Shown in pieces: positions 15,187 to 42,787 of a stretch of DNA of 64,000 nt. The translations under genes were made by a program, and so were the position numbers. Position 1 is the first letter of the stretch. Each line of letters starts with the position of its first letter. This DNA is from Alphaproteobacteria bacterium. GTDB taxonomy: Bacteria > Pseudomonadota > Alphaproteobacteria > MPNO01. Below the pieces are notes generated by a model, which saw nothing but the letters and a program-made list of their open reading frames with translations, ran no database searches and was not told where the DNA came from. The stretch lies in assembly GCA_965205995.1 (NCBI GenBank), contig OZ242200.1, forward strand, positions 2,073,071 through 2,137,070, read 5' to 3'.

Positions 15187-15300
15187 TCCTTCGATACGGC
15201 GCTTCGCGCCTACTCGGGATGAGGTGTTGTTTTTGGCCCCTCACCCCAACCCCTCACCCCAAGTAGCCCCCGAAGGGGGCGTATCGAAGGGCGGCCTAGG
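15187..15300. repeat. palindromic intergenic repeat, copy A (arms ccttcgatacggcgcttcgcgcctactcgggatgagg / cctcaccccaagtagcccccgaagggggcgtatcgaagg)
   Basis: Same about 37-bp arm recurs at 30026 and 42677 with an inverted partner about 10-20 nt away. Confidence 0.85.
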
Positions 15301-16906
15301 CCAGGCCCGCCTTCTCGCGCTCGCGCTGGCGCAGGTCGCGGCGGCGGATCTTGCCGGTTGCGGTCATCGGCAGCTCGGCCACGAACTCGACGGCGCGGGG
15401 ATATTCATGCGCCGACAGCCGCTCGCGGACATGGGCGCCGAGCGCCGCTTGCAGCGCCGGCGTCGGCGCCTCGCCTGGGCGCAGCACCACGAACGCCTTG
15501 ACGATCTCGCCGCGCAGCGGATCCGGCACCCCCACCGCCGCCGCCATCGCGACCGCCTTGTGGCTCGCCAGGCATTCCTCGATCTCGCCCGGTCCGATGC
15601 GGTAGCCGGCCGACGAAATCACGTCGTCCTCGCGCCCGACGAAGCGGAAATTGCCGTCCTCGTCCCTGAGCCCGAGATCGCCGGTGAGCAGCCAGTCGCC
15701 GTTGAATTTCGCCTTCGTGGCCTCCTCGTTGCGCCAGTAGCCGAGGAACATCACCGGGTCCGGGCGGCGGATCGCGATTTCGCCGGTCTCGCCGGGCGGC
15801 ATCTCTTCCCCGCCGCCTGCGTCCAGCACCGCGACCTCGTGTCCCGGGATCGCGCGGCCCAGCCAGCCCGGCCTGACCGGCAGCAGCCCGGCGCAATTGC
15901 CGAGCACCAGGTTGCATTCCGTCTGGCCGTAGAACTCGTTGATGGTCAGCCCGAACACCTCCCGCCCCCAATCGAGAAGCTCCTCGCCCAGGCTCTCGCC
16001 GCCGCTGCCGATACTGCGCAGCGCGAGCCCAAGCGGGCGTTGGGCGGCGGCCGGCGCCTGGCGCATCATTTTCAGCGCCGTCGGCGGCAGGAAGGCGTTG
16101 CGCACGCCGTGCCGCGCGAGCATCGCGAACGCCTCTTCCGGGTCGAACCTGCCGGGTGGGCTCGCCAGCACCGGCACCCCCGCCGCCCAGGCCGGCAGCA
16201 GCACGTCCAGCAGGCCGCCCGCCCAGGCCCAGTCCGCCGGCGTCCAGAACAGATCGCCCTTCTGCGGGAAGAATTCGTGCGGCAGGGCCACCCCCGGCAG
16301 ATGACCGGGCAGCACCCGGTGGCCGTGCAGCGCGCCCTTGGGCGGGCCGGTGGTGCCGGAGGTGTACATCAGCAAAGCCGGATCGTCGGGACCGGTCGCG
16401 GCGATCTCGAAGCGGTCGGAGCCGCGCTCCACCAGCGCCCAGAAATCCTCCGCGACCACCGTCGAGAGCTCCGGCAGGTCGAGCGCGGACGCCTTCTCGC
16501 GCCCCGCGGCGTCCGCGATCAGGACCTTCGCGCCGGAATCGCGCAGCCGGTGTTCGAGCGCATCGGCGCCGAACAGCGCGAACAGCGGCAGGACGACCGC
16601 GCCCAGCTTGTACGAAGCAAGATGGGTGAGCCCGGTCTCGACGCTCTGCCCCGCCATCACCGCCACCCGGTCGCCGCGCCCGATGCCGGAAGCGGCGAGC
16701 GCGTTGGCGAGGCGGTTGGAGAGTTGGGAGAGTTCGCGGAACGACCATTCGCGGAGGCCGCCCGCCGGGTCGGGGCAGATCAGCGCCGGGCGGGTGCTGT
16801 CGACATGGCGCTCGCAGACATGTTCGGCGATGTTGTAGCGGGACGGCAGCCGCCAGCGGAACGCCGCCCGAACCGCCTCCCAGCTTTCCCGGCGCTCGAC
16901 GATCAT
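15296..16906 (-). CDS. AMP-dependent synthetase/ligase (acyl/aryl-CoA synthetase)
   Basis: 536 aa with YTSGTTGPPKG AMP-binding motif, GYWRNEEAT, and C-terminal PMTATGKIRRRDL. Confidence 0.85.
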   Translation of the reverse strand: MIVERRESWEAVRAAFRWRLPSRYNIAEHVCERHVDSTRPALICPDPAGGLREWSFRELSQLSNRLANALAASGIGRGDRVAVMAGQSVETGLTHLASYKLGAVVLPLFALFGADALEHRLRDSGAKVLIADAAGREKASALDLPELSTVVAEDFWALVERGSDRFEIAATGPDDPALLMYTSGTTGPPKGALHGHRVLPGHLPGVALPHEFFPQKGDLFWTPADWAWAGGLLDVLLPAWAAGVPVLASPPGRFDPEEAFAMLARHGVRNAFLPPTALKMMRQAPAAAQRPLGLALRSIGSGGESLGEELLDWGREVFGLTINEFYGQTECNLVLGNCAGLLPVRPGWLGRAIPGHEVAVLDAGGGEEMPPGETGEIAIRRPDPVMFLGYWRNEEATKAKFNGDWLLTGDLGLRDEDGNFRFVGREDDVISSAGYRIGPGEIEECLASHKAVAMAAAVGVPDPLRGEIVKAFVVLRPGEAPTPALQAALGAHVRERLSAHEYPRAVEFVAELPMTATGKIRRRDLRQREREKAGLA

Positions 16907-17993
16907 CCGGCGAGATCGTAGAAATCGAGCGCGTTGTCCCAGAGGATCCGGCGCTCGGCGTCTTCGCCGAGTTGCGCGGCTTCGCGGAACTCGCGGACCG
17001 GGCCGGCGCCAGAATCGAAATGCGGGTAGTCGGTCGCGAACAGGATTTTATCGGCGCCGAGCCCGTCGACCGCGAGCGGGATCGTCGGGTCTCCGGGGTC
17101 GCAGCTGACGACGCATTGGCGCGCGAAATACTCGCTCGGGCGCATCGTCAGGCCGCGCATGTATCCGCCGAGCCTGGGATGCTCGAAATGGTCGTCGAGC
17201 CGGGCGATCCAATAGGGCGCCCAGGAGCACCCGGCCTCGAAAAACCGATTTTCAGCGCCGGGTAACGCTCCAGGACGCCGCCGCAGATCAGCGCCATCAT
17301 CGCCATCATCTGCTCGAAGGGGTGCGAAATCATGTGGTGGAAGGCATAGCTTTCCGGCCGCATCATCCCGCCATAGCGGTCGGCGCCCGCGGTCGCCGGA
17401 TCGCCGGTCGATTCGTGGACGATCAGCGGCACGCCGAGCTCCTCAATTGCGGCGTAGAGCGGGTCCCGGCTGGGGTCGTCGAGGCGCATTCCCGCCACCG
17501 GGTTGGGGCGGACGGTCACCGCCACCGCGCCGAGATCGGCAACCGCGCGCCGCGCCTCGCGAACCGCCTCGTCGATATCGTGCAGCGCCGCCGGGGCGGC
17601 GAATTTGAGCCGCTCGGGGAAGGCGCCGCACCAGTTCGCCATCCAGGAATTGTAGGCGCGCATCGCGGCGTGGCTGATGCCCGGCTCCAAATAGCCGGCG
17701 ACCAGCGCGGCGGAGGGAAACAGCACCGCGAGCCGGATACGTTCCTTGTCGAGCACCTTGATCCGGCTTTCCGGCGGCATCGGCTTGCGCACCGAGATTT
17801 CCTTCGGAAACGGCGGGTGCTCCTCGCCGTCGACCACGAACCTGCGGTTCCGGTCGGCATTCAGCGCCCAGCCCTGGGTGCGCCCGCGAAAGGCGGGCTC
17901 CAGATAGTCGCTGAACATCGCGTCCTCTTCGTGGACGTGCCCGTCCGCGTCGATGGCGAGATAGTCCGCGGGCACCGTGGGGGTTTCGTTCAT
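16903..17993 (-). pseudogene. amidohydrolase-2 (ACMSD/PF04909-like) gene split by a -1 frameshift in an A5/T5 homopolymer at about 17240..17244
   Basis: ORF 17148..17993 carries the N-terminal and middle regions, and ORF 16903..17160 carries the C-terminal region (ILFATDYPH). Adding one T restores ...LKIGFFEAGCSWAPYWIARLDDHFE..., matching the intact paralog at 39629..40750 (GIRVGFLEGGVAWLLFCIERFE). Confidence 0.75.
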
Positions 17994-18112
17994 GGCCTCG
18001 ATTCCGCTTCAACCTTGGGGTCACAGGGTTACAGACTATCCGAACTCGCCGGTGCGGGGATTTTGCTATTCTGGCCGCATGAACCGCGCGATGGACAAGA
18101 GGGAGGCGATCC

Positions 18113-19816
18113 GTGCCTGAACCGGGGGGCGGTCCGAGCGCCCATCGCGACCGGTTCGCGGCGGAGAACCTGCCGCCGAGGGATCTGTGGCCGGTCTTCG
18201 ACTACGACAGCCTGCCCGAGCTCCGCGCCTATCCCGCGCGGATGAATTGCGGCGCGATCCTGCTCGACGGCACCGCCGCCGCCGGCCACCGCGGCCGCCC
18301 GGTGCTGCATCTCGACGACACGAGCTGGAGCTATGGCGCGCTCCAGGATCTGTCGGAACGGATCGCCCGGGTGCTGGTCGAGGATTGCGGGCTGGCGCCG
18401 GGCAACCGCGTGCTGCTGCGCTCGGCCAACACGCCGATGCTGGTCGCGTGCTGGTTCGCGGTGCTCAAGGCGGGCGGCATCTGCGTGACCACGATGCAGC
18501 TATTGCGGGCGCGCGAGCTGGTCCACATCGTCGAGAAGGCGGAGATCTCGCACGCGCTCTGCGACCTCGCCCTGATGGAGGAGATGGAAGAGGCGCGCGA
18601 CCGCACCGCCGGCCTGCTCCGGCATTTGCTCACCTTCACCCCGCTCGGCGATCGTCCGGGCGATGCCTCGCTCGACCGGGCGGCCGGGGACAAGCCCGCG
18701 GGCTTCGGGAACTGCGACACCGCCGCCGACGATGTTGCGTTGATCGCCTTCACCTCCGGGACCACGGGAAACCCGAAGGCGACGATGCATTTCCACCGCG
18801 ACGTGATCGCGATGTGCGACTGCTTCCCGCGCTATTGCGACATGTCGGCGCCGGACGACGTGTTCGCCGGCACGCCGCCGCTCGCCTTCACCTTCGGGCT
18901 CGGCGGGCTGACCGCCTTCCCGATGCGGTTCGGCGCCTCGACCCGCTTCTTCCGCGGCCCGCTCGCGCCGGAAGAGACGATCGCGGCGATCGAGCGCCAC
19001 CGCATCACCAGCCTCTACACCGCGCCGACCGCCTATCGGGTGATGGCCGACATCGCCGGCGGCTACGATCTGTCGCGGCTGGTCAAATGCGTGTCGGCCG
19101 GAGAGACCCTGCCGAAGGCGACCTGGGAGGCGTTCCACGCCGCGACCGGCATTCCGATCGTCGACGGGCTCGGCTCGACCGAGATGCTGCACATCTTCGT
19201 CGCGGCCGCCCGCGAGGAGATGCGCGCGGGCTATACCGGGCGCGCGATCCCGGGCTACCGGGCCCGCGTGGTCGACGAGGCGGGCCGGACCCTGCCCCCC
19301 GGCGAGGCCGGGCTGATGGCGGTACAGGGCCCCACCGGCTGCCGCTATCTCGACGATATCGACCGCCAGCAGGTCTATGTCCGGGACGGCTGGAACTATC
19401 CCGGCGATGTCTACGCGATGAACGAGGACGGGTATTTCCGCTACGTCGCGCGGGCCGACGACATGATCATCTCGTCGGGCTACAACATCTCGGGGCCGGA
19501 GGTCGAGGCGGCGCTGCTGGACCATCCCGCGGTCGCCGAATGCGCGGTGATCGGCAAGCCGGATGCGGCGCGCACCAATATCGTCAAGGCGTTCGTGGTG
19601 CTGCGCCAAGGGACGGAGGCGGACGAGGAGGCCGTCCGGCGCCTGCAGGATTTCGTCAAGGCGGAAATCGCGCCCTACAAATACCCGCGCGAGATCGAGT
19701 TCGTCCCCGACCTGCCGAAGACGGAAACCGGCAAGATGCAGCGTTTTGCGCCAGCAGGAGGAAAATCCGCCGGGCTGAGCGATCCGCGATGGACCTGGGA
19801 AAAGAACCCGCTCTAG
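18113..19816 (+). CDS. aryl-CoA ligase (benzoate / aminobenzoate-CoA ligase-like AMP-binding enzyme)
   Basis: 567 aa with FTSGTTGNPKA and PKTETGKMQRF motifs. GTG start has GGGAGG 7 nt upstream. Confidence 0.8.
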   Translation: MPEPGGGPSAHRDRFAAENLPPRDLWPVFDYDSLPELRAYPARMNCGAILLDGTAAAGHRGRPVLHLDDTSWSYGALQDLSERIARVLVEDCGLAPGNRVLLRSANTPMLVACWFAVLKAGGICVTTMQLLRARELVHIVEKAEISHALCDLALMEEMEEARDRTAGLLRHLLTFTPLGDRPGDASLDRAAGDKPAGFGNCDTAADDVALIAFTSGTTGNPKATMHFHRDVIAMCDCFPRYCDMSAPDDVFAGTPPLAFTFGLGGLTAFPMRFGASTRFFRGPLAPEETIAAIERHRITSLYTAPTAYRVMADIAGGYDLSRLVKCVSAGETLPKATWEAFHAATGIPIVDGLGSTEMLHIFVAAAREEMRAGYTGRAIPGYRARVVDEAGRTLPPGEAGLMAVQGPTGCRYLDDIDRQQVYVRDGWNYPGDVYAMNEDGYFRYVARADDMIISSGYNISGPEVEAALLDHPAVAECAVIGKPDAARTNIVKAFVVLRQGTEADEEAVRRLQDFVKAEIAPYKYPREIEFVPDLPKTETGKMQRFAPAGGKSAGLSDPRWTWEKNPL

Positions 19817-19853
19817 GATACCCGTAACATTGCGTTCCCTTGGGAGGGACTCC

Positions 19854-21981: not shown

Positions 21982-22028
21982 TGGGATCGAGATATCCAGT
22001 GTTCGACCGCCGAAGCCTAGAGGATAAC

Positions 22029-22045: not shown

Positions 22046-22280
22046 TTCTCTCCCTCCGCCTCCCTTCGTCATATCGACCGGAGCCGCGCGGAGCGCGGCG
22101 GAGCGGAGATATTTGCCCGGCACAATGGCGCAACACCTGGGCTGGCAGATTTCTCCGCTTCGCTTCGCTCCGGTCGAAATGACGGTTGGGATCGGTGGCG
22201 ACCGGTCCCTCATCACGCCGCTGTCGACGCCGCGTCCGAAGCTGTGAAAATATAGGGTCCCCAATCGGGACGAACCTGGC

Positions 22281-25379: not shown

Positions 25380-27715
25380 TTCGCGGGCGTAACATCGAAC
25401 CGTTCAGGACAATCGGCCGGCCGGTCCGGCGCAAGGAAGATTCGCGCCTGCTCACCGGAAGGGGCCGCTTCAGCGACGACTTCGCCCTGCCCGGCCAGAC
25501 CCACGCGGCGATGGTTCGTTCGCCCCATCCCCACGCCCGGATCCTCTCGGTGGACAAGACGGCGGCCCTGGCCCTGCCCGGCGTTCTCGCCGTCTTCACG
25601 GGCGCCGACTGCGCGGCCGACGGGCTCCGCCCGCTCGACCACAGCCCGCTGCCGAAAACCCGGTTCGACCTCAAGCTGCACGGCCCCGGCGGCGGCGAGG
25701 TCTTCGTCGGCGACCATGCGCTGCTGCCGCTCGACAGGGTGCGCCATGTCGGCGAAGCCGTCGCCATGGCGGTCGCCGAGACCAGGGGCGCCGCGCAGGA
25801 TGCGGCTGAGGCGGTAGTCGTCGACTACGAGGAGCTGCCGGCGGTCACCGAGACCGCGGCCGCCGCCCGCCCAGGCGCACCGCTGATCTGGGACGACCGG
25901 CCGGACAATATCCTGGTCGAAACCTTCTTCGGCGACGAGGCCGGCACCGACGCCGCCTTCGCCGCGGCGACGCATGTCGTCGGCCGCCGTTTCGTCATCC
26001 CGCGGGTGACCGGCTGCCCGCTGGAGCCGCGCTCGGCGCTGGCCCAATACGATCCGGAGACCGGGCGCTACACCATCCATGCCGGCAGCGGCAGCGCGGT
26101 CCGCCAGAAGCGCGAGATCGCCGCCGTGCTGGGGGTGGAACCGGACCGGGTGCGCATCCACGCCTACGATGTCGGCGGCAATTTCGGCACCCGCAACCGC
26201 TGCTATGTCGAGTTCCCGCTGGCCGCCTGGTCATCGCGCAGGCTGGGGCGGCCGGTCAAGTGCACGGTCGAGCGCGGCGAAGCTTTGGTCAGCGACTACC
26301 AGGGCCGCGACCTGGTCACCGAGGTGACGCTGGCGTTCGACGCGGACGGCGCGATCCTCGGCCTGCGGGCGGAGAATCTGAGCAATGCCGGCGCGCGCTG
26401 CGTCTCGCTGTCGCCGCTGTCGAAGGGCTCGGGGATCGTCACCGGCTCCTACCGCGTGCCGGTCGCCTGGCTGCGGTCGCGCGCGACGTTTTCCAACACC
26501 CCGCCGACCAACGCCTATCGCAGCTCGGGCCGCCCGGAGTGCATCTTCGCCATCGAGCGGCTGATCGAGACCGCCGCGGAAGAGCTCGGGATCGACGCGG
26601 TCGAGCTGCGGCGCAGGAACCTGGTCGCACCGGAAGAGATGCCCTATTGCAACGCGGTCGGCGTGACCTATGACAGCGGCGAGTACGAAAAGAGCCTGGA
26701 CATGGCGCTCGGCCTCTCCGACCCGGACGGTTTCGGCGCGCGGAGGGAGGAGGCCGAGGCCCGCGGGCGGCTGCTGGGCCGGGGCGTCGCCCATTATGTC
26801 GAATCCTCGGTCGGCACGCCGGTGGAGCAGGCGCGCATGCGCGTCTTCGGCCAGGACCGCCGGGTCGATGTGGTGATCGGCACCCAGCCGAGCGGCCAGG
26901 GCCACGAGACCAGCTTCGCCCAGGTCGCCGCCGAACGCCTCGGCCTTCCGGTCGAGGATATCCGGATCGTCATGGGCGATACCGACATCGTGAAAATCGG
27001 CGGCGGGTCGCATTCGGGCCGCTCGATGCGGATGGCGGGAACCGTGATCGTCATGGCCGTCGATGCGTTGATCGAAGACGCGAAGCCAATTGCCGCCGGG
27101 CTCCTGGAAGCGGCGGAAATCGACATCGACTTCGCCGACGGCCGGTTCTCGGTCGCCGGCACCGACCGCGAAGCGACGCTCTACGAGGTCGCCGGGGCGG
27201 CCGAGGGAGGCGAGCTCCGCATCGTCGCCGATAACGAGATGCACACCCCGGTCTTTCCCAACGGATGCCATGTCTGCGAGCTGGAGCTCGATCCCGACAC
27301 CGGCACGATCGACATCGTCCGCTACGCGGCCGTGGACGATGTCGGCCGGGCGATCAACCCGCTGATCGTCGACGGGCAGACGCATGGCGGCATTGTCCAG
27401 GGGGTCGGCCAGGCCATGTGGGAGGTCTGCGTCAACGACCCCGAAAGCCAGCAGCCGCTCGCCGGCTCGTTCATGGACTACGCCCTGCCGCGCGCCGACC
27501 GGCTCCCGTTCTTCGCGACCGCGCTCAACGAAGTCCCCTCGCCCACCAACCCGCTCGGAATCAAGGCCGGCGGCGAGGGCGGCACCACCCCCGCGCTCGC
27601 GGTGATCGTCAACGCGATCCTCGACGCGCTCAAGCCGTTCGGCGTCGCCGACCTCACCATGCCGGCGACGCCGTTCCGGGTGTGGAGCGCGATCCGCGCC
27701 GCGCGGGGCGGTTAA
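25379..27715 (+). CDS. xanthine dehydrogenase / CoxL-family molybdopterin-binding subunit (molybdenum hydroxylase large subunit); start codon uncertain
   Basis: Conserved N-terminus GRPVRRKEDSRLLTGRGRF begins immediately at the upstream TGA, where only CTG/ATT are available as starts. AYRSSGRPE and GGGFG-type motifs. No CoxM/CoxS-type partner genes adjacent. Confidence 0.85.
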   Translation: MRGRNIEPFRTIGRPVRRKEDSRLLTGRGRFSDDFALPGQTHAAMVRSPHPHARILSVDKTAALALPGVLAVFTGADCAADGLRPLDHSPLPKTRFDLKLHGPGGGEVFVGDHALLPLDRVRHVGEAVAMAVAETRGAAQDAAEAVVVDYEELPAVTETAAAARPGAPLIWDDRPDNILVETFFGDEAGTDAAFAAATHVVGRRFVIPRVTGCPLEPRSALAQYDPETGRYTIHAGSGSAVRQKREIAAVLGVEPDRVRIHAYDVGGNFGTRNRCYVEFPLAAWSSRRLGRPVKCTVERGEALVSDYQGRDLVTEVTLAFDADGAILGLRAENLSNAGARCVSLSPLSKGSGIVTGSYRVPVAWLRSRATFSNTPPTNAYRSSGRPECIFAIERLIETAAEELGIDAVELRRRNLVAPEEMPYCNAVGVTYDSGEYEKSLDMALGLSDPDGFGARREEAEARGRLLGRGVAHYVESSVGTPVEQARMRVFGQDRRVDVVIGTQPSGQGHETSFAQVAAERLGLPVEDIRIVMGDTDIVKIGGGSHSGRSMRMAGTVIVMAVDALIEDAKPIAAGLLEAAEIDIDFADGRFSVAGTDREATLYEVAGAAEGGELRIVADNEMHTPVFPNGCHVCELELDPDTGTIDIVRYAAVDDVGRAINPLIVDGQTHGGIVQGVGQAMWEVCVNDPESQQPLAGSFMDYALPRADRLPFFATALNEVPSPTNPLGIKAGGEGGTTPALAVIVNAILDALKPFGVADLTMPATPFRVWSAIRAARGG

Positions 27716-27783
27716 ATGGGTTGGAATCGGGCGGCCGCGCGTGTAACGGTCCAACCCATCGTCGAAGCCAGGGGGACAAAACC

Positions 27784-29979
27784 GTGCTGTTCCGATCCCG
27801 GTCGGCCGATCGACCGTTCCATTTCGGCCTCTTTCCGCTGGAGACGCTGCCGCGCGACGAGTCGCTGATCGACGCGGAGGCGGAGCGCCCTCCGGCCGGC
27901 GCCCCGGTGCGCGAGCGGAGCGAGGGCCAGTTCGTCGATGCGCTCGACAAGTTCACCCGGCTCTACGCCGAGTTCGCCGACGCCGATGCGGCGAAGGAGA
28001 AGGCGCCGGTCTCGGACGACCTCGAACGTCGCTCGGTCGACATCAAGGGGGTCGGCTATTTCATGGACGCGAGCCAGGTCGGCATCTGCCGGATCCCGGA
28101 CAATGCCTGGCTCGCCGGCGCCGAGCGCTGCGACCACGATCATGCGATCGTCATCCTCGTCGAGCATTCGCGCGTCGCCGAGGAAGGCAATCTCGCCCGC
28201 GACTGGATGCTTCCGGCGGTCGCCGCCAACGCGGAAATGCGCGCGGCCGAGATCGCCGCCCTGATCGCCGGCCACATCCGGGTCATGGGCCATGGCGCAT
28301 ACATGCACGGCATGGACAAGGAACGCCTCGATGCCGGGCGCCTCGCGGTGCTCGCCGGGCTCGCTATCCGCCAGGGGGAGCGTATCGTCAACCCGTTCGT
28401 CGGCGAGGCGTTTTCGCTCTGCGTGGTCTCGACCGACTACCCACTCGCCGTCGACAAGCCGCTGGCGGCGGGGGCGGTCGGCGCGTCCCGGGGATTCGGC
28501 TACTGGCTCGGGCGCAACGGCGCCCGCTCCGGGCGCGAGCGCAACCGGCGCGCCAGGCGGCGCACCGATCTCGGCCCGTTCGCGATGGAGACCGTCAAGC
28601 GCGTCGACCGGCCGACCACGCTGATCCTCGACGAAGAGGTGCCGCGCGTGCCCAAGCGCGCCGCCTTCTTCGAACGCGCGTTGCAGGGCGATCTCGGGGT
28701 CAAGGCGCAGATGGCGCGGCGGATCTTCTCCTTCAAGCACCCGCTCTCGCTCAGCCAGCTCAAGGTCATCCGCAAGATGGTGCCTTACCAGGACGGTCCG
28801 GTCGCCGAAATCGACAGCGGGCGCTTCGGCGACGCCGAGGCCAATACCAGGGCGCTCAAATCGCTCGCCTATTTCCTCGGCACCGACATCGCCGGCGTGT
28901 GCGAGGTGCCGCGCTATGCCTGGTATTCGCACAAGGAGAACGGCGAGCCGATCGAGCCCTATCACAAATACGCCGTGGTGATGCTGATCGACCAGGGCTT
29001 CGACACGATGGAAGGGGCGAGCGGCGACGACTGGATTTCCGGCGCCCAGTCGATGCGCGCCTATCTCCGGGGGGCGGAGATCGCCTCGGTGATGGCCGAG
29101 CTTCTGCGCGTCAACGGGTTTCCGTCGCGGTCGCAGACCAACGCCGACAGCGACGTGCTGCACATCCCGCTGGTCCTCTGGGCCGGGCTGGGCGAGCTGT
29201 CGCGGATCGGCGAGCTCATCCTCAACCCGTTTCTCGGGCCCCGGCTCAAGACCGTGGTCATGACCACCGACATGCCGCTGGTGCCGGACAAGCCGATCGA
29301 TTTCGGCCTCCAGTATTTCTGCAGCAATTGTTTCAAATGCGCCCGCGAATGCCCCTGCGACGCGATCCCTCTGGGCGACAAGGTGATGTTCAACGGCTAC
29401 GAGATCTGGAAGCCGGATGTCGAACGCTGCACCCGCTACAGGCTCACCAACGTCAAGGGCTCGGCCTGCGGGCGCTGCATGAAGACCTGCCCGCTCAACA
29501 AGGTGGTGGACGCGGACGGCCCGCTGATGACCCGGATGGCGAGCTGGCTCGGCATCAACGCGATGTTCCTCAAACCGCTGATGGTGCCGGTCGCGGCATG
29601 GCTCGACGACGCGCTCGGCAACGGCACGCGCAACCCGCTCAAGAAATGGTGGTTCGACCACGAGGTGGTCGACGGCGTAACCACCGTGCCGAAGGCCACC
29701 AACCAACGGGACATCGACCCGTCGCGCAGTATCGACCCGGCGAAACAGAAGATGGCCTATTACCACGCCAACATGATGCCGCCGCCGGACTCGTCGGAAC
29801 CCTTCGCGGTCGACCGCAAGCAGGCCCTGGCGGCGAAGGACGCGATCGAGACCCCGGCCGAGGCGCGGGCGCGGCTCGCCAACGGCGCCCACACGCCCGG
29901 GCACTACATCCCGACCCCGCCCGCCGGCGCCGCCGATGCGGAGAAGGAGCTGGTCGCGAGCCCCTATGCGAAGGATTAG
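27784..29979 (+). CDS. reductive dehalogenase-like protein (cobalamin-dependent, soluble 'catabolic' RdhA class) with two [4Fe-4S] motifs and a long C-terminal extension
   Basis: CSNCFKCARECP (CxxCxxCxxxCP) followed by C-x12-CGRCMKTCP, the truncated second-cluster arrangement typical of RdhA/QueG. About 730 aa, no TAT signal, no adjacent RdhB anchor. GTG start with AGGGGGA SD. Confidence 0.6.
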   Translation: MLFRSRSADRPFHFGLFPLETLPRDESLIDAEAERPPAGAPVRERSEGQFVDALDKFTRLYAEFADADAAKEKAPVSDDLERRSVDIKGVGYFMDASQVGICRIPDNAWLAGAERCDHDHAIVILVEHSRVAEEGNLARDWMLPAVAANAEMRAAEIAALIAGHIRVMGHGAYMHGMDKERLDAGRLAVLAGLAIRQGERIVNPFVGEAFSLCVVSTDYPLAVDKPLAAGAVGASRGFGYWLGRNGARSGRERNRRARRRTDLGPFAMETVKRVDRPTTLILDEEVPRVPKRAAFFERALQGDLGVKAQMARRIFSFKHPLSLSQLKVIRKMVPYQDGPVAEIDSGRFGDAEANTRALKSLAYFLGTDIAGVCEVPRYAWYSHKENGEPIEPYHKYAVVMLIDQGFDTMEGASGDDWISGAQSMRAYLRGAEIASVMAELLRVNGFPSRSQTNADSDVLHIPLVLWAGLGELSRIGELILNPFLGPRLKTVVMTTDMPLVPDKPIDFGLQYFCSNCFKCARECPCDAIPLGDKVMFNGYEIWKPDVERCTRYRLTNVKGSACGRCMKTCPLNKVVDADGPLMTRMASWLGINAMFLKPLMVPVAAWLDDALGNGTRNPLKKWWFDHEVVDGVTTVPKATNQRDIDPSRSIDPAKQKMAYYHANMMPPPDSSEPFAVDRKQALAAKDAIETPAEARARLANGAHTPGHYIPTPPAGAADAEKELVASPYAKD

Positions 29980-30025
29980 GGCGTGTCCGTTTTGGATGGA
30001 ACCGCTGCGGCGGCTGAAGCACGCC

Positions 30026-30107
30026 CCTTCGATACGGCGCTTCGCGCCTACTCAGGGTGAGGGATTTTTTCCTCATCCCGAGTAGGCCCGAAGGGCCGTA
30101 TCGAGGG
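30026..30107. repeat. palindromic intergenic repeat, copy B (37-bp arms separated by gatttttt), 47 bp downstream of the RdhA-like stop
   Basis: Arms ccttcgatacggcgcttcgcgcctactcagggtgagg / cctcatcccgagtaggcccgaagggccgtatcgaggg read directly. Can form a long hairpin and may double as a terminator. Confidence 0.85.
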
Positions 30108-30172
30108 ACGGCCCGCCGCCACGTTTCCATCCAACACGGATAGGCTCTAGGCCCCTCGCCGCGGCCCGCGCC

Positions 30173-31006
30173 ATGCCTCTCGTCGACTGCGACGGCCGCA
30201 GGGTGAGCTACGAGGCCGGCGGACCGGCGGACGGCGCCGCGCCGCTTCTTGTGCTCCAGCCGCCCGGCGCCAGCGGCGCGGCGATCTGGCGGCCCATCGC
30301 GGCGGCGTTGCAGGACCGGTTCCGCATTGCCGCGGTCAACCCCTCGGCCTATGGCGATACCGAGGCCTTTGCCGGCCCGGCGCCGATGACGATCCGGGAC
30401 GAGGCGGCGGCGACCGCCGCCGCGATCCGCGCCGAGTTGCCGGAAGGCGGCAGGGCGCGCGCCCATATCGTCGGCCATTCCTATGGCGGCACGATCGCGC
30501 TGGTGCTGGCCCTCGATTGGCCGGGGTTGGTGGACCGGCTGACCCTGCTCGAGCCCGCGCCCTACAAGCTGCTGCGCGAGGCCGGCGAGACCGCTTTTGC
30601 CGAGGAGATCGGCGCGCGCAACCGGGATTTCATCGAGACCGTGCGCGCCGGCGGGCTCAACGACGCGGCGATGGAAGACTATCTCGATTATTTCAATGAC
30701 CGACCGGGATACTGGCGGAGCCTGGACGAGGAGACGCGGACCCGGATGCTGGCCTTGGCGGAGCGCCTGGCCGTCGGGCTCGACGCGGTGCGGCGGCTGA
30801 AAATGCGCCGCGCCGACCTCGCCGCGATCTCGGTCCCGGTCACCGTGATCCGGGGCGGCGCGACCGATCCGCTGCACGCGAGGCTGTCCGAACTGGTCGC
30901 CGGGGCGATCCCGGGCGCCGCGCTCACCGACCTGCCGGGCGCCGGCCACATGATGACCCTGACCCACGGCCCGGCGATCGCCGAGATGCTGCGAAGAATA
31001 GCGTAG
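30173..31006 (+). CDS. alpha/beta-fold hydrolase
   Basis: GHSYGG nucleophile elbow, 277 aa. Confidence 0.8.
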   Translation: MPLVDCDGRRVSYEAGGPADGAAPLLVLQPPGASGAAIWRPIAAALQDRFRIAAVNPSAYGDTEAFAGPAPMTIRDEAAATAAAIRAELPEGGRARAHIVGHSYGGTIALVLALDWPGLVDRLTLLEPAPYKLLREAGETAFAEEIGARNRDFIETVRAGGLNDAAMEDYLDYFNDRPGYWRSLDEETRTRMLALAERLAVGLDAVRRLKMRRADLAAISVPVTVIRGGATDPLHARLSELVAGAIPGAALTDLPGAGHMMTLTHGPAIAEMLRRIA

Positions 31007-31014
31007 GTCGGGGG

Positions 31015-32247
31015 TCACCCGCCGGAGGAACCCCGCCGCGGCGCCATGAAGGGGAGCGCGCAGAAAAAGCTCAGCAATGCCATCGAACCCATCGTCAGGA
31101 AGGCGAACCCCCAGGCGTTCGAGCCGCCCAGCGGCGCGGCCAGATCGAGGACCAGCCCCACCAGCGCCGGCGCGAACAGGGATCCGCTGAACCCGAATAT
31201 CGAGTGCACCGCGAGCGTCGCGCCGCGATGGCCCACCGGAGACGTCGCGACCGCGCCGGCGGTCAGCGCCGCCGAATCTGCCTGGATCGCGGCGGAATAG
31301 AGCAGACACAGGAAAGCCGCGATGGCGAAGGGGAGCGTGGAGGAAAACCCGGTTGCGACGCCTATCCCGAAGGTCCCCAGCATGACCCAGGCGATCAGGC
31401 GCGCACGCCCGACGCGCATTGCGATTTCCGCGCCGGCGATGCTGGAAACCACCGAGACGAGGGCGAACAGGGTGGCAAAGAGCGTGGCGTCGAGCTCGAA
31501 CGAGGCGCCGCTGCCGAGGCAGAACACCAGGAACGGGACGATCCAGGAGCGCATGGCGAACAGCTCGGCCCCGTGGCCGGCATAGGCGACGATGTAGCCC
31601 ATCGTCTCGCGCGAGCGCAGAACCGGACGGAAGTCCAGCATATGGCTGCGTTCTTCGGCGGCCGCTTCGGGCGACCGCGGCACGATTGCCGCCGCCAGGA
31701 GAAGAGCGGACAGCGCCGGCCCCGCGGCCGTGAACAGAAACGCGCCGCGCCATCCAAACCACTCCAGGGCAACGCCCGCGAGCGAATAGGAGAGCGCGGT
31801 GCCGACGCTGAAGCTCGCGGTATAAAATGCGACCGCCCGCGCGTGTCGGGCCTGCGGCAGCCGGTCGGTGAGCATCTTGAGGCCCGGCATGTAGCTGCCC
31901 GCGAGACCGGCGCCGGCGATCACGCGCCACGGCAAGGCGGACCAGAACCCGTTCGCGAAGAGCGCCAACCCCGCCAGGCCGAAGGCGGAGAGCATCGCAC
32001 CCAGAATGACGATATGGCGGGCATCGACCCGGTCGGTCATCGCGGAAAGAAACGGGACCGCGAGGACATAGCCGCCGAAAAACGCACCGGACAGCCAGCC
32101 GGCCATGGCGTTGCTCATATGCCAGGCGGGCTGCAGCACCGGCAGCAGCGACCAATACGCCGCGAAACCGGCCATCGTCAGCACTTCGGCCAGGCACACC
32201 ACGGCGATCAGGGTCGACGGGCGTCGCAAGGCGGTGGGGGCGGTCAC
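31015..32247 (-). CDS. MFS transporter
   Basis: 12 predicted hydrophobic segments. GTG start at 32247 chosen to avoid overlap with the upstream thioesterase gene. Confidence 0.75.
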   Translation of the reverse strand: MTAPTALRRPSTLIAVVCLAEVLTMAGFAAYWSLLPVLQPAWHMSNAMAGWLSGAFFGGYVLAVPFLSAMTDRVDARHIVILGAMLSAFGLAGLALFANGFWSALPWRVIAGAGLAGSYMPGLKMLTDRLPQARHARAVAFYTASFSVGTALSYSLAGVALEWFGWRGAFLFTAAGPALSALLLAAAIVPRSPEAAAEERSHMLDFRPVLRSRETMGYIVAYAGHGAELFAMRSWIVPFLVFCLGSGASFELDATLFATLFALVSVVSSIAGAEIAMRVGRARLIAWVMLGTFGIGVATGFSSTLPFAIAAFLCLLYSAAIQADSAALTAGAVATSPVGHRGATLAVHSIFGFSGSLFAPALVGLVLDLAAPLGGSNAWGFAFLTMGSMALLSFFCALPFMAPRRGSSGG

Positions 32248-32264
32248 CGCATCGAAGGGGCGCC

Positions 32265-32758: not shown

Positions 32759-34189
32759 ATGGGCGACGAACTCTGGCGCTGGACGGCGGAGGCGCTGGTC
32801 CGCGGAATCCGGACGCGCGCGATCTCGAGCCGCGAGGCGACCGAGAGCTGCCTCGCCAGGCTCGATGCGGTCAACCCGCGCATCAACGCCGTGGTCGACC
32901 CGCTGGCCGACGAGGCGCTGGCCGCCGCCGACCGGGCGGACGAGGCGATCCGCCGCGGCGAGGCGCCGGGCGTGCTCCACGGGGTGCCGGTGACGGTCAA
33001 GATCAATGTCGACTATGCCGGCCGCGCGACCACCAACGGGGTGACCGCCTTCGCCAACATGGCCGCCGAAGAGGACAGCGTCTCGGTCGCCAATCTGCGC
33101 AAGGCGGGGGCGGTGATCCTCGGGCGGACCAACGTACCCGGCTTCTCCACCCGATACTTCACCGACAACGATTTGCACGGTCGGACGCTCAACCCGTGGG
33201 ATGCGGGACGCACGCCGGGAGGATCGAGCGGCGGGGCGGCGGCCGCGGTCGCCACCGGCATCGGCCCGATCGGCCACGGCAACGACCGCGCCGGATCGGT
33301 CCGCTACCCGGCTTTTGCCTGCGGCGTCGCGGGTCTCCGCCCCAGCCTCGGAAGGGTGCCCGACTTCAACCCGTCGGCCACCGAGGAGCGCGGCATCTCC
33401 TCGCAGATGGCGAATGTCCAGGGCCCGCTCGCCCGCACCGTCGGGGATATCCGCCTCGGCCTGGAGGCGCTGGCCGCGCCCGACCCCCGCGATCCGTGGT
33501 TGGTCCCGGTGCCGCTCGCCGCCCACCCCCCGGCGGCGCGCGGCCGCGCCGCCATCCTGTCGTCTTCGCCGGGGGTGAACGCCGATCCGGCGGTGACCGA
33601 GGCGGTGCGCCAGTCGGGCGCCTGGCTCGAGGACGCCGGCTACGACGTCGAGGAGGCGGCGCCGCCCCGGCTCGACGAGGCCTCGGGGCTGTTCTGGCCG
33701 ATCCTGATGGCCGAGGAGCGCGCGGCGACCCCCGCCGAACGCTCCGCCTCGTCGAGCGGGATCGAACGCTTCGGCGACGCGGCGGTGAAACGCGCCCGCG
33801 CGTCGGTCCGCGCCTATGCGGGCGACCTCGACTACGACACCTATGTCCGTTCGCTCGCCTCCCGAACGACCATGCTGCGCGAATGGTACGCCTTCTTCGA
33901 ACGCTACCCGATCCTCGTCATGCCGGTTTCGTGGCAGCGCCCCTACCCCATCGACCACGACCAGAAAGGCGATGACGCGGTGCGGGAAATGCTCGACGCG
34001 CACCGGCCGATGCTGGCGATCTCGCTGCTCGGCCTGCCGGGGCTCTCGGTGCCGGTGAGCCTCGCCGGCGGGGTTCCGGTCGGGGTGCAGATCGTCTCCG
34101 CCAGGTTCGGCGAGGAACGCCTGCTGGCAGCCGGCGAGACGATCGAGGCGCGCTCCCCCATCGATACGCCGATCGACCCCAGAGGCTGA
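32759..34189 (+). CDS. amidase-signature (Ser-cisSer-Lys) family amidase
   Basis: GGSSGGAAAAVA and GHGNDRAGSVRYPAFACGVAGLRPS signature. Confidence 0.9.
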   Translation: MGDELWRWTAEALVRGIRTRAISSREATESCLARLDAVNPRINAVVDPLADEALAAADRADEAIRRGEAPGVLHGVPVTVKINVDYAGRATTNGVTAFANMAAEEDSVSVANLRKAGAVILGRTNVPGFSTRYFTDNDLHGRTLNPWDAGRTPGGSSGGAAAAVATGIGPIGHGNDRAGSVRYPAFACGVAGLRPSLGRVPDFNPSATEERGISSQMANVQGPLARTVGDIRLGLEALAAPDPRDPWLVPVPLAAHPPAARGRAAILSSSPGVNADPAVTEAVRQSGAWLEDAGYDVEEAAPPRLDEASGLFWPILMAEERAATPAERSASSSGIERFGDAAVKRARASVRAYAGDLDYDTYVRSLASRTTMLREWYAFFERYPILVMPVSWQRPYPIDHDQKGDDAVREMLDAHRPMLAISLLGLPGLSVPVSLAGGVPVGVQIVSARFGEERLLAAGETIEARSPIDTPIDPRG

Positions 34190-34199
34190 GGAGAACGCG

Positions 34200-36208: not shown

Positions 36209-36269
36209 TCGGGCATAGACATTGGCGGCGAGGATCAGGAACAGGATCGAGACCGTGATATGGCCGGTC

Positions 36270-37240: not shown

Positions 37241-37433
37241 CCCTTTCCGTTGGGTAATGGTCTCAACTTGTGTTGTGGGGTGGGGCGCAGATATTCGCCT
37301 CGGCGCATCGTAGCGACCGCGCAACGGCCGGCCAATGCGATTCTGAACGGCGTAGACGCCGGGGCGGCGAACGGGGCTTCGACATTCCGCCTTGTCTCGC
37401 AGAAGATACCCTTGGGATTTCAGGGAGGCAGGG

Positions 37434-38228: not shown

Positions 38229-38229
38229 C

Positions 38230-38802: not shown

Positions 38803-38827
38803 TGCGCCTCCCCGGAGAAGCCCGGGC

Positions 38828-39598: not shown

Positions 39599-39628
39599 GG
39601 TTCCTCCGATCCCGGTCGCGGGCGCCCG

Positions 39629-40750
39629 CTACTCCGCGGCTTCGCGCCCGGCCTCATCCGTACGAACGGCGTAGAACCGTTCGGCGTTGCGGAACAGGAT
39701 CGCATCGCGGTCCTCGGCGCTCAACTCCGCGTGCTCGAAGATTTCCTCCAGGTGGTGCAGGCACTTCTCCGTGTTCACCTCGTGCGGAAAGTCCGAAGAA
39801 AACATGAAGGGGGCATTGCCCACCTTCTTGATCGCCGCCGCCAGCATGTACTCGTCGCCCTCGGCACCGACGAAGATCCGGCCGCCCTGCACCAGTTCGA
39901 GCACATATTCGCCCACCGACTGCCCCTGCGGGAGCTTGAGCAGCTCGCCCCGCCAGTCGAGCGGCACGAAATTGTCGTGCGAGGACTCGAAGCGCTCGAT
40001 ACAGAACAGCAGCCAGGCAACCCCGCCTTCGAGGAAGCCGACCCTGATGCCGGGGAAGCGGTCGAACACGCCGTTGAAGACCAGCCCGCCGAGGCCGATC
40101 ATCATCGCCAGCGGGTGTCCGATCGCATGCGCCGGGGCGAAGACGTTCATCTGGTCCATGCCGAAATTGATGTGGTTTCCGGCATGCACCGCGAGCGGAC
40201 AGCCGAGCCGTTCCGCCTCGGCATAGATGGGCCAGTATTCCTTGGAGCCCAGATTGCCCTTGACGCCGGTCCCGGACAGCATGGCGCCGGTCATCCTGAG
40301 CTCGCTCACGCAGCGCCCGAGCTCCTCGACCGCGGCATCGGGCTCCTGCATCGGGAGCAGCCCCATCCCCCTGAAGGCGTCGGAGCGCGCGACATAGGTC
40401 TCGGCGAGCCAGTCGTTATAGGCCCTGGCGACCGCGATCGCGTAGTCGGAATTGGCGACATGGCCCATCGTCAACCCGTTGGTGGGGAACAGCACCGCGC
40501 TTTCGATCCCGGTGGCGTCCATGAAGCGCATCCATTCCTCGACGCCGACATGCTTGCCGTCGCCGAAGGCCCCCGGCGGGTTGGTGCCGGTCGGGGTGTG
40601 GAGATGGCCGAGCGGCGGGAACCAGGGCTGGCCGGCGAAAATCCCGTGCGCGTATTTCCAGTCGCGGTAGATCTTGGGCATCCGCTTGCCCATCGCCTCG
40701 GCGTCTTCGAAGACATGGCCGTCGGCGTCGATGATTCGAATTTGTGTCAT
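39629..40750 (-). CDS. amidohydrolase-2 family protein (ACMSD-like decarboxylase/hydratase); intact paralog of the frameshifted gene at 16903..17993
   Basis: IIDADGHVFE N-terminal metal motif and FSSDFPH C-terminal motif. Confidence 0.85.
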   Translation of the reverse strand: MTQIRIIDADGHVFEDAEAMGKRMPKIYRDWKYAHGIFAGQPWFPPLGHLHTPTGTNPPGAFGDGKHVGVEEWMRFMDATGIESAVLFPTNGLTMGHVANSDYAIAVARAYNDWLAETYVARSDAFRGMGLLPMQEPDAAVEELGRCVSELRMTGAMLSGTGVKGNLGSKEYWPIYAEAERLGCPLAVHAGNHINFGMDQMNVFAPAHAIGHPLAMMIGLGGLVFNGVFDRFPGIRVGFLEGGVAWLLFCIERFESSHDNFVPLDWRGELLKLPQGQSVGEYVLELVQGGRIFVGAEGDEYMLAAAIKKVGNAPFMFSSDFPHEVNTEKCLHHLEEIFEHAELSAEDRDAILFRNAERFYAVRTDEAGREAAE

Positions 40751-40793
40751 GGAATTCCTCCGCTGGCGATTTCCCGGCGCCAGGCGCCCTGGC

Positions 40794-42107
40794 TCAGCGC
40801 ATGATCGCCGGGAGGATGGTGACGATCCCGGGGAAGATCATCAAGAGAGCAATCAGGACAAGCTGGATACCGACGATGGGGACCGCCGCGCGATAGATCT
40901 CGGCCATGCTCAAAGTAGGCTGAACGCCCTTCATCACGAATAGCAGGACACCGAAGGGGGGCGTGATCCCGGCGAGTTCGAGCTGCACCAGGATCAGGAT
41001 CGAGAACCAGATCGGATCGAGCCCGAGCGCCAGCACCAGCGGCATGAACACCGGGATCGAGACCATCATGATCGAGATCGTGTCGATGAAGCAGCCCAGC
41101 ACCAGCACCATGAGCTGCATGATGATCACCATCGCCAAAGGCGACAGGTCGAGCTCGGCCACCGCGTCGACCAGCGACGACGTCGTTCCGGTCGCGGCGA
41201 GGATTTGCGAGAACCCCGCCGATCCGACGATCACCAGCAGCATCATCGACGTCGTCGTGGCGGTCGAAATCATGGCGGCCTTCACCGCCTCCCAAGTGAG
41301 GCGGCGATAGCAGGCGGCGATGGCCATGGTCGCGACCACCCCCATGGCGGCGGCCTCCGACGGCGTCGCGATCCCCATGAAAATGAAGCCGGTGACGACG
41401 ATGATCAGGCTGAACAGCGGCGTGACCCGGAACAGGCTTGCCAATTTCCGCGCCAGCGTCATCGGCGGCGCGAGATAGGGCGGCGCGAGGTGCGGCTGCA
41501 GCCTGGCCCGCAAGGTGAAATAGGCGAAGTAGAGCGCCGCCAGCACCAGCCCCGGCAGCAGGCCGGCGAGCAACAGCTTGGCGATCGACACCTTGGCGAG
41601 GGCGCCGAGCAGCACGCCAAGCGCGCTGGGCGGGATCAGGACGGCGAGCCCGCCGCCGGCAAGGATCGCGCCGACCGAGAACTCCGAACGGTACTCGCGC
41701 TTGCCCATCTCCGGCACCAGCGTCGAGCCCAGCATGGCGACCGAGGCCATGCTGGCGCCGCTCAGCGCGCCGAACAGGGTGCCGCCGCCGACCGCCGAAA
41801 CCGCGAGACGGCCGGGCAGGCGCCCGATCCAGTGATCGGCGGCGTCGACGGTCATGTTGGCGAGCCCGGTGCGCATCAACAGCTCGCCCATCAGGATGAA
41901 CAGCGGGATCGGGATCAGCGCGAACTGGCCGACCGAGGAGAACGCGCTGGTCGCCAGCAAAGAGAGCGCGACCTCGCCGCCCATGAAGAAGTAGAGCCCG
42001 AGGATGTTGAGCGTAAGAAAGCCGAACGCGACCGGCATGCCGCTCGCCAGCACCACGGCCAGCAGGACGAAGAAGATCAGCAGCAAGAACGACCAGTCGA
42101 GCTCCAT
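40794..42107 (-). CDS. TRAP transporter large permease (DctM)
   Basis: 437 aa, start MELDWSFLLLIFF. Confidence 0.9.
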   Translation of the reverse strand: MELDWSFLLLIFFVLLAVVLASGMPVAFGFLTLNILGLYFFMGGEVALSLLATSAFSSVGQFALIPIPLFILMGELLMRTGLANMTVDAADHWIGRLPGRLAVSAVGGGTLFGALSGASMASVAMLGSTLVPEMGKREYRSEFSVGAILAGGGLAVLIPPSALGVLLGALAKVSIAKLLLAGLLPGLVLAALYFAYFTLRARLQPHLAPPYLAPPMTLARKLASLFRVTPLFSLIIVVTGFIFMGIATPSEAAAMGVVATMAIAACYRRLTWEAVKAAMISTATTTSMMLLVIVGSAGFSQILAATGTTSSLVDAVAELDLSPLAMVIIMQLMVLVLGCFIDTISIMMVSIPVFMPLVLALGLDPIWFSILILVQLELAGITPPFGVLLFVMKGVQPTLSMAEIYRAAVPIVGIQLVLIALLMIFPGIVTILPAIMR

Positions 42108-42118
42108 TGCGCCGCCCC

Positions 42119-42658
42119 TCAGGTTCCGCCGAGCGAGCCGCCGCTCCGGCCCCTCGCCCTCAGCGCGGCCTCGGGATCCGGCTCGCCGATATAGGTCAGC
42201 AGCCGCGCCGCGAAGGCGAGCGTCAGCAACGCGCTGCCGAACGGCACCGCGACATAGGGGTAGATGCGCGGGATGTTCCAGATCCGCGCCGTGCGCACGT
42301 CGTTCTGGGCGTACTCGACCGCCGCGATCCCGGTCCGCCAGGCGAGAATGGCGCAGACCACCAGCCCGACGACGGAAACCGCGACCCCGATCGCCCGCTG
42401 CGACCGGGGGCCCATGGCCTCGACCAGGATCTCGACCCGCACATGGCCGTCGCGAAGCAATATCCAGGGCGCGGCGAGGAAGGTCATCCAGACCAGGGAG
42501 TATTCGGACAGATCGAATGCCCAAGGCGAGGCCCAGCCGAACAGGTTCCGGGTGATCACGTCATAGGTGATCCAGAAGCTCATCGCGAGGATGAGAAAGG
42601 CGGATAGCCAGGCGAGCCACCGCATGGGCCGCTCGACCAGCCTGGCGAAGCGTCTCAC
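42119..42658 (-). CDS. TRAP transporter small permease (DctQ); start may be the internal Met at about 42625
   Basis: Four hydrophobic segments, placed directly upstream of dctM. Confidence 0.8.
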   Translation of the reverse strand: MRRFARLVERPMRWLAWLSAFLILAMSFWITYDVITRNLFGWASPWAFDLSEYSLVWMTFLAAPWILLRDGHVRVEILVEAMGPRSQRAIGVAVSVVGLVVCAILAWRTGIAAVEYAQNDVRTARIWNIPRIYPYVAVPFGSALLTLAFAARLLTYIGEPDPEAALRARGRSGGSLGGT

Positions 42659-42676
42659 CGTCTACACTCTCGACCC

Positions 42677-42787
42677 GTCCCTCGATGCGGCGCTTACGCG
42701 CCTACTCGGGATGAGGAAACAATTTACGGGCTCCCTCACCCTGAGTAGCCCCGGACTTGATCCGGGGCGTATCGAAGGGCGCCGTCC
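42677..42787. repeat. palindromic intergenic repeat, copy C, inserted between dctP and dctQ of the third TRAP locus
   Basis: Left arm gtccctcgatgcggcgcttacgcgcctactcgggatgagg. The right arm has the shared ends plus a nested hairpin ccccggacttgatccgggg. Confidence 0.8.

Follow-up and report, generated by a model that had tools for sequence, protein, structure and literature searches.

GTAG-tagged inverted dimers at gene 3' ends in an alphaproteobacterial metagenome contig: a dispersed and probably REP-like repeat family

In a stretch of 64,000 nucleotides from an Alphaproteobacteria bacterium (assembly GCA_965205995.1, contig OZ242200.1, positions 2,073,071 to 2,137,070), which was taken from a 6.95-Mb circular metagenome contig and is called the window here, three palindromic repeats of about 110 bp lie at the 3' ends of genes. 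What are these repeats, and how did they come to be there? An earlier note on the window had likened them to REP (repetitive extragenic palindromic) elements, RIME (Rhizobium-specific intergenic mosaic elements) and MITEs (miniature inverted-repeat transposable elements), possibly acting as terminators or mRNA stabilisers. We describe the three repeats as members of a dispersed family of inverted dimers, the unit of which carries a GTAG tag beside a small GC-rich hairpin, and we consider it probable (roughly 0.65) that this family is REP-like and has been spreading and turning over as non-autonomous mobile DNA. The anatomy of the element, the size of the family, the covariation of its hairpins, the rule by which unlike modules are paired, the placement and the polymorphism between genomes were all observed directly. 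We would class it as a new family of GTAG-tagged REP dimers (i.e., REPIN-like) with a mosaic behaviour similar to that of the bacterial interspersed mosaic elements (BIMEs).

Three dimers in the window and the family to which they belong

The three copies are as follows; bits are scores of the half-module model R1 described below, as are the types A and B.

15186-15292: copy 1, a dimer with the GTAG tags inside; half-modules 15188-15224 (+) and 15252-15290 (-), 62.6 and 53.1 bits
30024-30109: core of copy 2; type B half-module 30026-30062 (+) and type A half-module 30071-30107 (-), 61.6 and 60 bits
42677-42780: copy 3; type A half-module 42679-42716 (+) and type B half-module 42734-42778 (-), 57.7 and 49.4 bits

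All three were found where the earlier note had placed them, and the arm, the pattern and the covariance model agreed. The 35-nt arm matched the window three times at up to 3 mismatches and did not match any of 100 dinucleotide-preserving shuffles; the degenerate half-module pattern TCGATRCG-N9-30-CTACTYRGGRTGAGG gave six matches, namely one on the plus and one on the minus strand of every copy, again with none in the shuffles. R1, a covariance model of the half-module run with its filters off, scored the six sites at 49-63 bits and its next best match at 15.5 bits. The latter (34158-34191) was considered as a relic and rejected, because it is the 3' end of the coding sequence for an amidase. 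Because the six sites stand far above this coding match, the window holds exactly three copies.

The positions at gene 3' ends, which had also been noted, were correct. Copy 1 starts 17 nt past the stop codon of sbmA and ends 5 nt short of the stop codon of a convergent AMP-ligase gene, with a T-rich spacer of 27 nt between its half-modules. The neighbours of copy 2, the spacer of which is 8 nt, are genes for an alpha/beta hydrolase and for a reductive-dehalogenase-like protein (TIGR02486, 183.7 bits). Copy 3 has a spacer of 17 nt, and its second hairpin is a long CCCCGGACTTGATCCGGGG variant; read on the minus strand, it lies 7 nt past the dctP stop and 18 nt ahead of the dctQ start and is thereby placed inside the dctPQM operon of a TRAP (tripartite ATP-independent periplasmic) transporter, at the junction of a binding-protein gene and a membrane-component gene. 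The cctagg-like ends of copies 1 and 3, in contrast to what had been supposed, are the TAG stop codons of adjoining minus-strand genes (15296-15298 and 42788-42790) and were not conserved in 45 other dimers.

Beyond the window, at least 119 stretches with the pattern were found when GTDB genomes were scanned, one for each species, and at least 120 in a scan of metagenomes (JGI). The retrieved stretches, 239 loci of 1.84 Mb in all, are labelled with L-numbers below. A relaxed search with mismatches allowed, covering these loci and the window, gave 451 half-modules, 77% of which were held in inverted pairs; the GTAG tags were inside in 132 of the pairs and outside in 45, and tandem pairs numbered 8. 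The pattern count proposed earlier thus returned not three copies without conserved termini but several hundred that have them, in a large number of genomes.

The unit of the family is a half-module of 37-45 nt, in which CCYTCGATRCG is followed by a small GC hairpin and then by CTACTYRGGRTGAGG, and each copy is an inverted pair of such units. Read on the other strand, the half-module is CCTCAYCCYRA-GTAG-(GC hairpin)-CGTATCGARGG, and the GTAG tags face inward in all dimers of the window. On the module strand, CTAC was 94-99% conserved in the 451 modules, a value partly ascertained since detection allowed up to 3 mismatches in the 15-mer that contains it; the CGTA tag on the other side of the hairpin was conserved at 98-99%.

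On either strand, and as RNA as well as DNA, copies 1 and 3 are predicted to form a three-way junction that has TCGATACG/CGTATCGA as its outer stem, the 15-mer CTACTCRGGRTGAGG paired with its complement as its central stem, and two small hairpins; the RNA folds of copy 1 had z values of -5.1 and -5.8. Since its spacer is just 8 nt, copy 2 can also fold as a single long hairpin (z -10.9). When 28 dimers of many genomes were aligned, RNAalifold returned the same three-way junction with 31 pairs; all 8 compensatory pairs were in the small hairpins, and the outer and central stems were invariant. The differences between arms that had been read as compensatory do not pair arm against arm; each arm bears its own variable small hairpin.

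These hairpins are where the sequence varies and the structure is kept. The inner segments of 213 strict modules formed a perfect stem of at least 4 bp in 92% of cases (vs 1.6% of shuffled segments), with 12 different outer stems. When 74 distinct modules were aligned, 97.7% of the cells were paired and 63 were double-change cells, a figure as high being reached by none of 500 shuffles, and the covariation was lost when the partner column was slid. The usual stem is composed of 4 variable pairs and an invariant G-C pair, i.e., 5 bp, and longer variants reach 6-8 bp. The stems recur as GCGC-, CCGC-, CGGC-, CCCC(C)- and GCCC(C)- forms and as a long CCCCGGAT..ATCCGGGG form, and these variants look like a discrete repertoire, not a continuum. 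In terms of the GTAG tag, the covarying GC hairpin and the inverted dimers in both configurations, the core of the earlier proposal, a REP-type family shaped by secondary structure, is supported.

Three tightly linked sites, namely an outer site, position 7 and position 10, divide the modules into three types, and all other combinations of these sites were seen 9 times in total.

Type A: outer C, position 7 G, position 10 A (n=70)
Type B: outer T, position 7 A, position 10 G (n=70)
Type C: outer T, position 7 A, position 10 A (n=64)

Among the typed dimers with GTAG inside, 36 of 41 (88%) were heterodimers, mostly A+B, where random pairing would give 24.9 +/- 2.9; a count of 36 was not reached in any of 20,000 simulations. 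A/B pairing puts G-T and A-C oppositions into the central stem, and the fold is hence not being optimised. The excess of heterodimers fits either descent from dimeric masters or a requirement that the two ends differ.

Among the matches listed, all genome hosts were bins or metagenome-assembled genomes (MAGs) of uncultured organisms: many were entitled Alphaproteobacteria bacterium, several were Defluviicoccus, several were Rhodospirillaceae bins and one was a member of Sphingomonadaceae. Taken by themselves, several of the depositors' bin names ('Spongia_Bin9', a Rhodospirillaceae bin, and apparently those with the RHO/COS prefixes) suggest sponge-associated samples. Four independent MAGs among the matches listed were labelled Nitrospinota or Nitrospinaceae. 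Contigs with this label share 81-93% identity over kilobases with those of records titled 'bacterium', and because such matches include closed chromosomes (OY843592.1 and OZ244799.1, on which L028 and L105 sit), the occurrence in the Nitrospinota-labelled lineage is not a binning artefact. Pairs with GTAG outside were in loci of 55-70% GC (21/23 at 55-65% GC, mostly in the Nitrospinota-labelled lineage and its close relatives), and those with GTAG inside were predominant in Alphaproteobacteria of 62-72% GC. Loci with identical core motifs in the Nitrospinota-labelled MAGs or their relatives are L008, L010, L037, L038, L053, L056, L061 and L063, and also L066, L069, L076, L081, L091, L113, L117 and L122; in this lineage, the mostly GTAG-outside pairs stand amid other dense repeats such as 'ctgttgaaaaagcc'.

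A search of viral contigs gave no match to the family, and an origin from phages or viruses was rejected. Copy 3 had no blastn match among 72,556 plasmids and chromids (PLSDB), which include the replicons of Sinorhizobium and Azospirillum. The sole gathering-level match of the window in Rfam was a selenocysteine tRNA, and a permissive scan of copy 1 gave chance-level matches only. Literature searches by sequence words and by REP and sponge did not find a description of the family.

Placement beside genes and turnover between genomes

Flanking genes were co-directional at 112 placements, convergent at 77 (35%) and divergent at 34, and the distance past the upstream stop codon peaked at 6-30 nt. 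This position, together with that of copy 3 in a TRAP operon junction, would suit RNA structures that have a function between cistrons or in 3' untranslated regions, i.e., stabilisers, processing sites or terminators that are selected locally and have not spread as mobile DNA. The stable folds and the strong covariation of the hairpins are also in line with such RNA, as is the retention of copy 2 at the orthologous site of a species about 85% identical. We consider this explanation unlikely, nonetheless. At co-directional loci, the A/B orientation relative to transcription was unbiased (AB 9, BA 8), by which a strand-specific RNA function, suggested by copies 2 and 3, was rejected, and over a third of the placements are between convergent genes. 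The upstream genes are unrelated: 107 of them fell into 121 Pfam families with no enrichment, and none for binding proteins. Rfam has no match for the copies, the systematic A/B mismatches weaken the fold, and related genomes differ in the presence or absence of copies and in the number of units. At the end of none of the three copies was a T-tail found, the single T-run being within a spacer; the hairpins are thus not canonical intrinsic terminators, and the proposal to that effect was dropped.

The REP between malE and malF of E. coli acts between genes for a binding protein and a membrane component. By this analogy, it is plausible that the transcribed structure might protect upstream mRNA from 3' exonucleases, maybe that of dctP-dctQ through copy 3. 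A preference of the family for binding-protein genes on the malE-malF model was rejected, given no Pfam enrichment among the 107 upstream genes. Two further candidates were set aside. Integron attC sites, which have RYYYAAC ... GTTRRRY cores and stand in arrays of co-oriented cassettes, were rejected on the ends of the element (CCYTCGATRCG ... CGYATCGARGG) and on the 35% of convergent placements, no search having been aimed at an integrase gene; and solitary CYTCGATRCG motifs were rejected as enriched target sites, since their number in the window (5 vs about 1.9 expected, 4 of them within coding sequence) is chance-like.

Comparison of related genomes shows how the elements change. One contig (L125; OZ220750.1, Alphaproteobacteria bacterium) is collinear with 27714-32237 of the window at 85% identity. 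At a site between the genes for a 4HBT thioesterase and a transporter of the major facilitator superfamily (MFS), this contig has a full dimer, whereas the window has only the gene-proximal terminal motif:

32247-32258 (-): solo terminal motif CCTTCGATGCG, about 8 nt past the 4HBT thioesterase stop and abutting the MFS gene start

This pair of a filled and a nearly empty site can have arisen through insertion on the 3' side of ...TCGATRCG or through a deletion by which the gene-proximal arm was spared. The orthologue of copy 2 in the same contig has identical long motifs, and both of its hairpins are different. At the site of copy 1, a strain contig (L002) has kept the gene-proximal arm, and the rest is replaced by about 290 bp of unrelated AT-rich sequence. 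At the site of copy 2, another strain contig (L128) has a spacer of 28 nt, compared with 8 nt in the window and a mode of 27-28 nt in the family. Loci L154 and L165 differ by exactly one half-module, and one dimer in L033 corresponds to two in L179. At the orthologous sites of L103, L200 and L211, the left hairpin, the spacer and the right hairpin form a recombinant pattern in which hairpins are exchanged as units. A second small module, GCCTGTCCTGAGC...GTCGAAGGGG, is appended to elements via a shared CGTATCGAAAGCC junction and is also inserted in hairpin loops.

Other palindromic sequences and modules were noticed as well. The replacement in L002 (11230-11525, corresponding to about 15182-15277 of the window) has three short perfect palindromes with CCCC at both bounds, and it also holds a fragment like the outer module described below for copy 2 (..ccaaccgacccggatacgctctaa). 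An unrelated palindromic repeat with nested inverted repeats, CGTCATATCGACCGGAGC...GCTCCGGTCGAAATGACG, lies at 22067-22184 of the window; relatives of it are at the orthologous intergenic site in L018, L200 and L211, where L103 has a GTAG dimer. As it starts with CGTC, this repeat may be one of the CGTC-tagged REPs described from Alphaproteobacteria. In L017 (about 440-800), L080, L102 and L040, a further recurrent module, CTGTCAAGTAATCGGTATAAGC, adjoins core elements at their CCCTTCGATA end, and in L017 this module is accompanied by a long separate palindrome, ccgtcatggtcggcgtaggccgaccatccacg.

Candidate enzymes and the weight of the evidence

If the family is REP-like mobile DNA, a structure-specific enzyme supplied in trans would act on the folded single strand, and copies would build up just past stop codons, where they should cause little harm. 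The best candidate for this enzyme is a tyrosine HUH transposase, i.e., a REP-associated tyrosine transposase (RAYT), by analogy with REP and REPIN; it might recognise GTAG plus the hairpin and cut beside the hairpin. The RAYT-type transposase leads the candidates because the studied systems recognise GTAG and a hairpin in that way. Cuts at the borders of the hairpin would account for the cassette-like exchange of hairpins and for the retained terminal motif.

Several observations weigh against this explanation. No RAYT or other HUH transposase was found by phmmer and two HUH/tyrosine motif searches in any open reading frame (ORF) of the window or of the 1.84 Mb in the 239 loci, and the search for a cognate RAYT that had been proposed earlier hence gave none. 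The probe, an E. coli RayT sequence, was validated by its score of 179 bits against NCBIfam NF047646 (REP-associated tyrosine transposase) and had no Pfam match. This negative is a weak one, because a RAYT is usually present in single copy and the repeats of each genome were sampled in part; about two adjacent loci would roughly be expected. Genes bracketed by two elements were all ordinary metabolic genes, one of them for a hydrolase, and the recurrent neighbour families were transporters and metabolic enzymes. By eye, we take two of the bracketed genes to be those of a probable homogentisate dioxygenase and a probable uracil phosphoribosyltransferase. A clean empty site with no remnant was not found in the sequences compared; L102/L067, L092/L066 and L203/L089, which were considered as such, are too diverged or mosaic to set the borders of an insertion. 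The outer and central stems have no support from covariation because they never vary, and they could be kept as protein-binding sequence. Finally, the small stem, with 4-5 variable pairs and an invariant G-C, is shorter than the 6-13 bp usual in GTAG-tagged REPs, and the conserved flank is unusually long.

A variant is a mobile system of palindromic modules that is independent of classical RAYT and is shared horizontally by Alphaproteobacteria and the Nitrospinota-labelled lineage. Another structure-specific enzyme would then cut at the GTAG/CGTA borders of the hairpin, and this would explain why hairpin cassettes are swapped while the flanking motifs of 8 and 15 nt stay identical. Beside the REP-like explanation, we regard this variant as improbable.

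A different kind of mobility is suggested by the surroundings of copy 2, the core of which is enclosed in a second palindrome.

29979-30147: outer shell of copy 2, an inverted repeat with inward ends resembling terminal inverted repeats (TIRs), G(G/A)GC(G/C)T(G/A)TCCGT(T/G)TTGGATGGAA(C/A)CG

The dinucleotide TA is present on both sides of the shell, at 29977-29978 (part of the upstream TAG stop) and at 30148-30149, and the segment 29990-30139 folds at -103.8 kcal/mol (z -12.7). The same TIR-like module (GAGCSTRTCCGTTT...) was found at at least eight related loci, flanking core dimers in L055, L057, L062, L071, L101, L111, L118 and L125; in 9 of the 14 cases, the module has TA ahead of it. Copy 2 is composite, with a REP-like core in a MITE-like shell. 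Correia-type MITEs are short elements bounded by inverted repeats with a TA target duplication, and the shell resembles them in its bounds, its TA flanks and its position at a gene end; unlike them, it encloses a REP-like dimer. One could hence ask whether the whole family consists of classical MITEs, namely deletion derivatives of insertion sequences that are moved by a DDE transposase through TIRs and leave target-site duplications. This is quite unlikely, in our view. Copies 1 and 3 and most other dimers have no shell, the core dimers have no target-site duplication, and the two inverted arrangements and the indels of exactly one unit are not MITE-like. No full-length insertion sequence with these TIRs, and hence no parent element, was seen in the 1.84 Mb, and the lone transposase gene of the window is a truncated one of the IS110 type, unrelated to the repeats. 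The comparison with MITEs that had been made earlier therefore suits only the outer shell of copy 2.

The least likely proposal is that TCGATACG and CTACTCRGGRTGAGG are binding sites of a host protein (a nucleoid protein or topoisomerase) in chromosome organisation, as proposed for the BIMEs of E. coli: these two long motifs are invariant across genomes and phylum labels while hairpins and spacers change freely, but such invariance is equally expected of transposase recognition sequences, and the strict position past stop codons and the indels of whole units would be left unexplained.

Each of these rivals accounts for fewer observations than the reading of the family as mobile REP-like DNA.

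Relation to known repeats, and other features of the window

What defines the superfamily of GTAG-tagged REPs is that the tetranucleotide GTAG adjoins a stem-loop rich in GC (Di Nocera et al. 2013, PMC3733652). The tag, or a close variant, is conserved at one end of the palindromic unit in over 90% of members, and the stems are of 6-13 bp, or of 5 bp in one described family (PMC3733652); the usual stem here is at the lower edge of that range. With these REPs, their head-to-head and tail-to-tail (HH/TT) dimers and the REP/BIME of E. coli, the present family has in common the unpaired GTAG, the GC-rich stem-loop and sub-families with alternative complementary stems (PMC3733652). Also common to the GTAG-tagged REPs and the present family are inverted dimers in both configurations, spacers of 8-77 nt, heterodimers, co-directional or convergent placement near stop codons, some dimers nested in longer palindromes, and mosaic modules (PMC3733652). 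The present family differs, however, in having no sequence similarity to described families, a stem of 5-6 bp, CGTA(TCGA) on the other side of the hairpin and hosts among uncultured genomes only. In addition, about 11 nt on either side of the tag and hairpin are as conserved as the tag itself and form the three-way junction.

In REPIN-RAYT systems, as in this family, two inverted REPs and a spacer persist and diversify together as one unit (Bertels and Rainey 2011, PMC3116915; PMC5581495), and orthologous copies are kept across species alongside turnover within lineages. The cognate RAYT gene, which in such systems is usually single-copy and bordered by the same REPs, is what was not found in the window and the 239 loci. 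RAYT groups 2 and 3, which are linked to REPINs, are known from Enterobacteria and Pseudomonas, not from Alphaproteobacteria, and REPIN-RAYT systems are reported to be inherited vertically, whereas the present family crosses phylum labels (PMC3116915; PMC5581495).

The CGTC-tagged REPs of Alphaproteobacteria share with the present family the class of hosts and a hairpin behind which come a CGT-N tag and a tail resembling TCGAAGG, and no dedicated transposase is known for them (PMC3733652). The tag here, however, is CGTA instead of CGTC, TGTC or CCTC, GTAG is present, and the stems have no A-T first pairs. As for RIME, copy 3 had no blastn match to rhizobial replicons; this resemblance, which the earlier note had raised, was hence not supported, as judged on the replicons and not on RIME consensus sequences.

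While the family has no description in the literature searched or in Rfam, the kind to which it belongs is well known; selfish or semi-domesticated repeats of this kind are ordinary. A few details are unusual, namely the very long invariant flanks on either side of a short and hypervariable hairpin, the strong heterodimer rule, motifs shared across phylum labels and a RAYT that is so far absent. Populations of the REPIN type have been documented for the most part in Gammaproteobacteria, where vertical inheritance together with their RAYT is assumed. Core motifs shared across phylum labels, with no RAYT in 1.8 Mb, provide a test case for the dependence on RAYT and for movement between hosts, and the hairpin cassettes bounded by GTAG/CGTA predict where the responsible enzyme would cut. 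For annotation, furthermore, the elements give rise to false small ORFs, and assemblies or gene calls can be broken by them, in a set of uncultured Alphaproteobacteria and their relatives; R1 recognises the half-modules cleanly.

Some other features of the window were noticed along the way. The gene of dctP (42788-43940, minus strand), which adjoins copy 3, looks disrupted: the signal peptide and the C-terminal half share one frame, and about 90 codons in the middle, a stop included, are in a different frame. This pattern means two frameshifts and hence either a pseudogene or an error of long-read assembly. The sole transposase gene, that of the IS110 family (5053-6051, minus strand), encodes the Transposase_20 domain alone with no N-terminal DEDD domain and overlaps the 3' end of an rpoD-like gene on the opposite strand; beside it, at 6069-6112, is a perfect 19-bp inverted repeat with no link to the repeat family. 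The long inverted repeats I1, I2 and I4 (72-81% complementary) are not a repeat element but result from paralogy of the AMP-dependent ligase genes, which are in opposite orientation at 15296-16906 (-) and about 18114-19784 (+). The selenocysteine tRNA gene is at 57142-57233 on the plus strand (RF01852, 75.7 bits).

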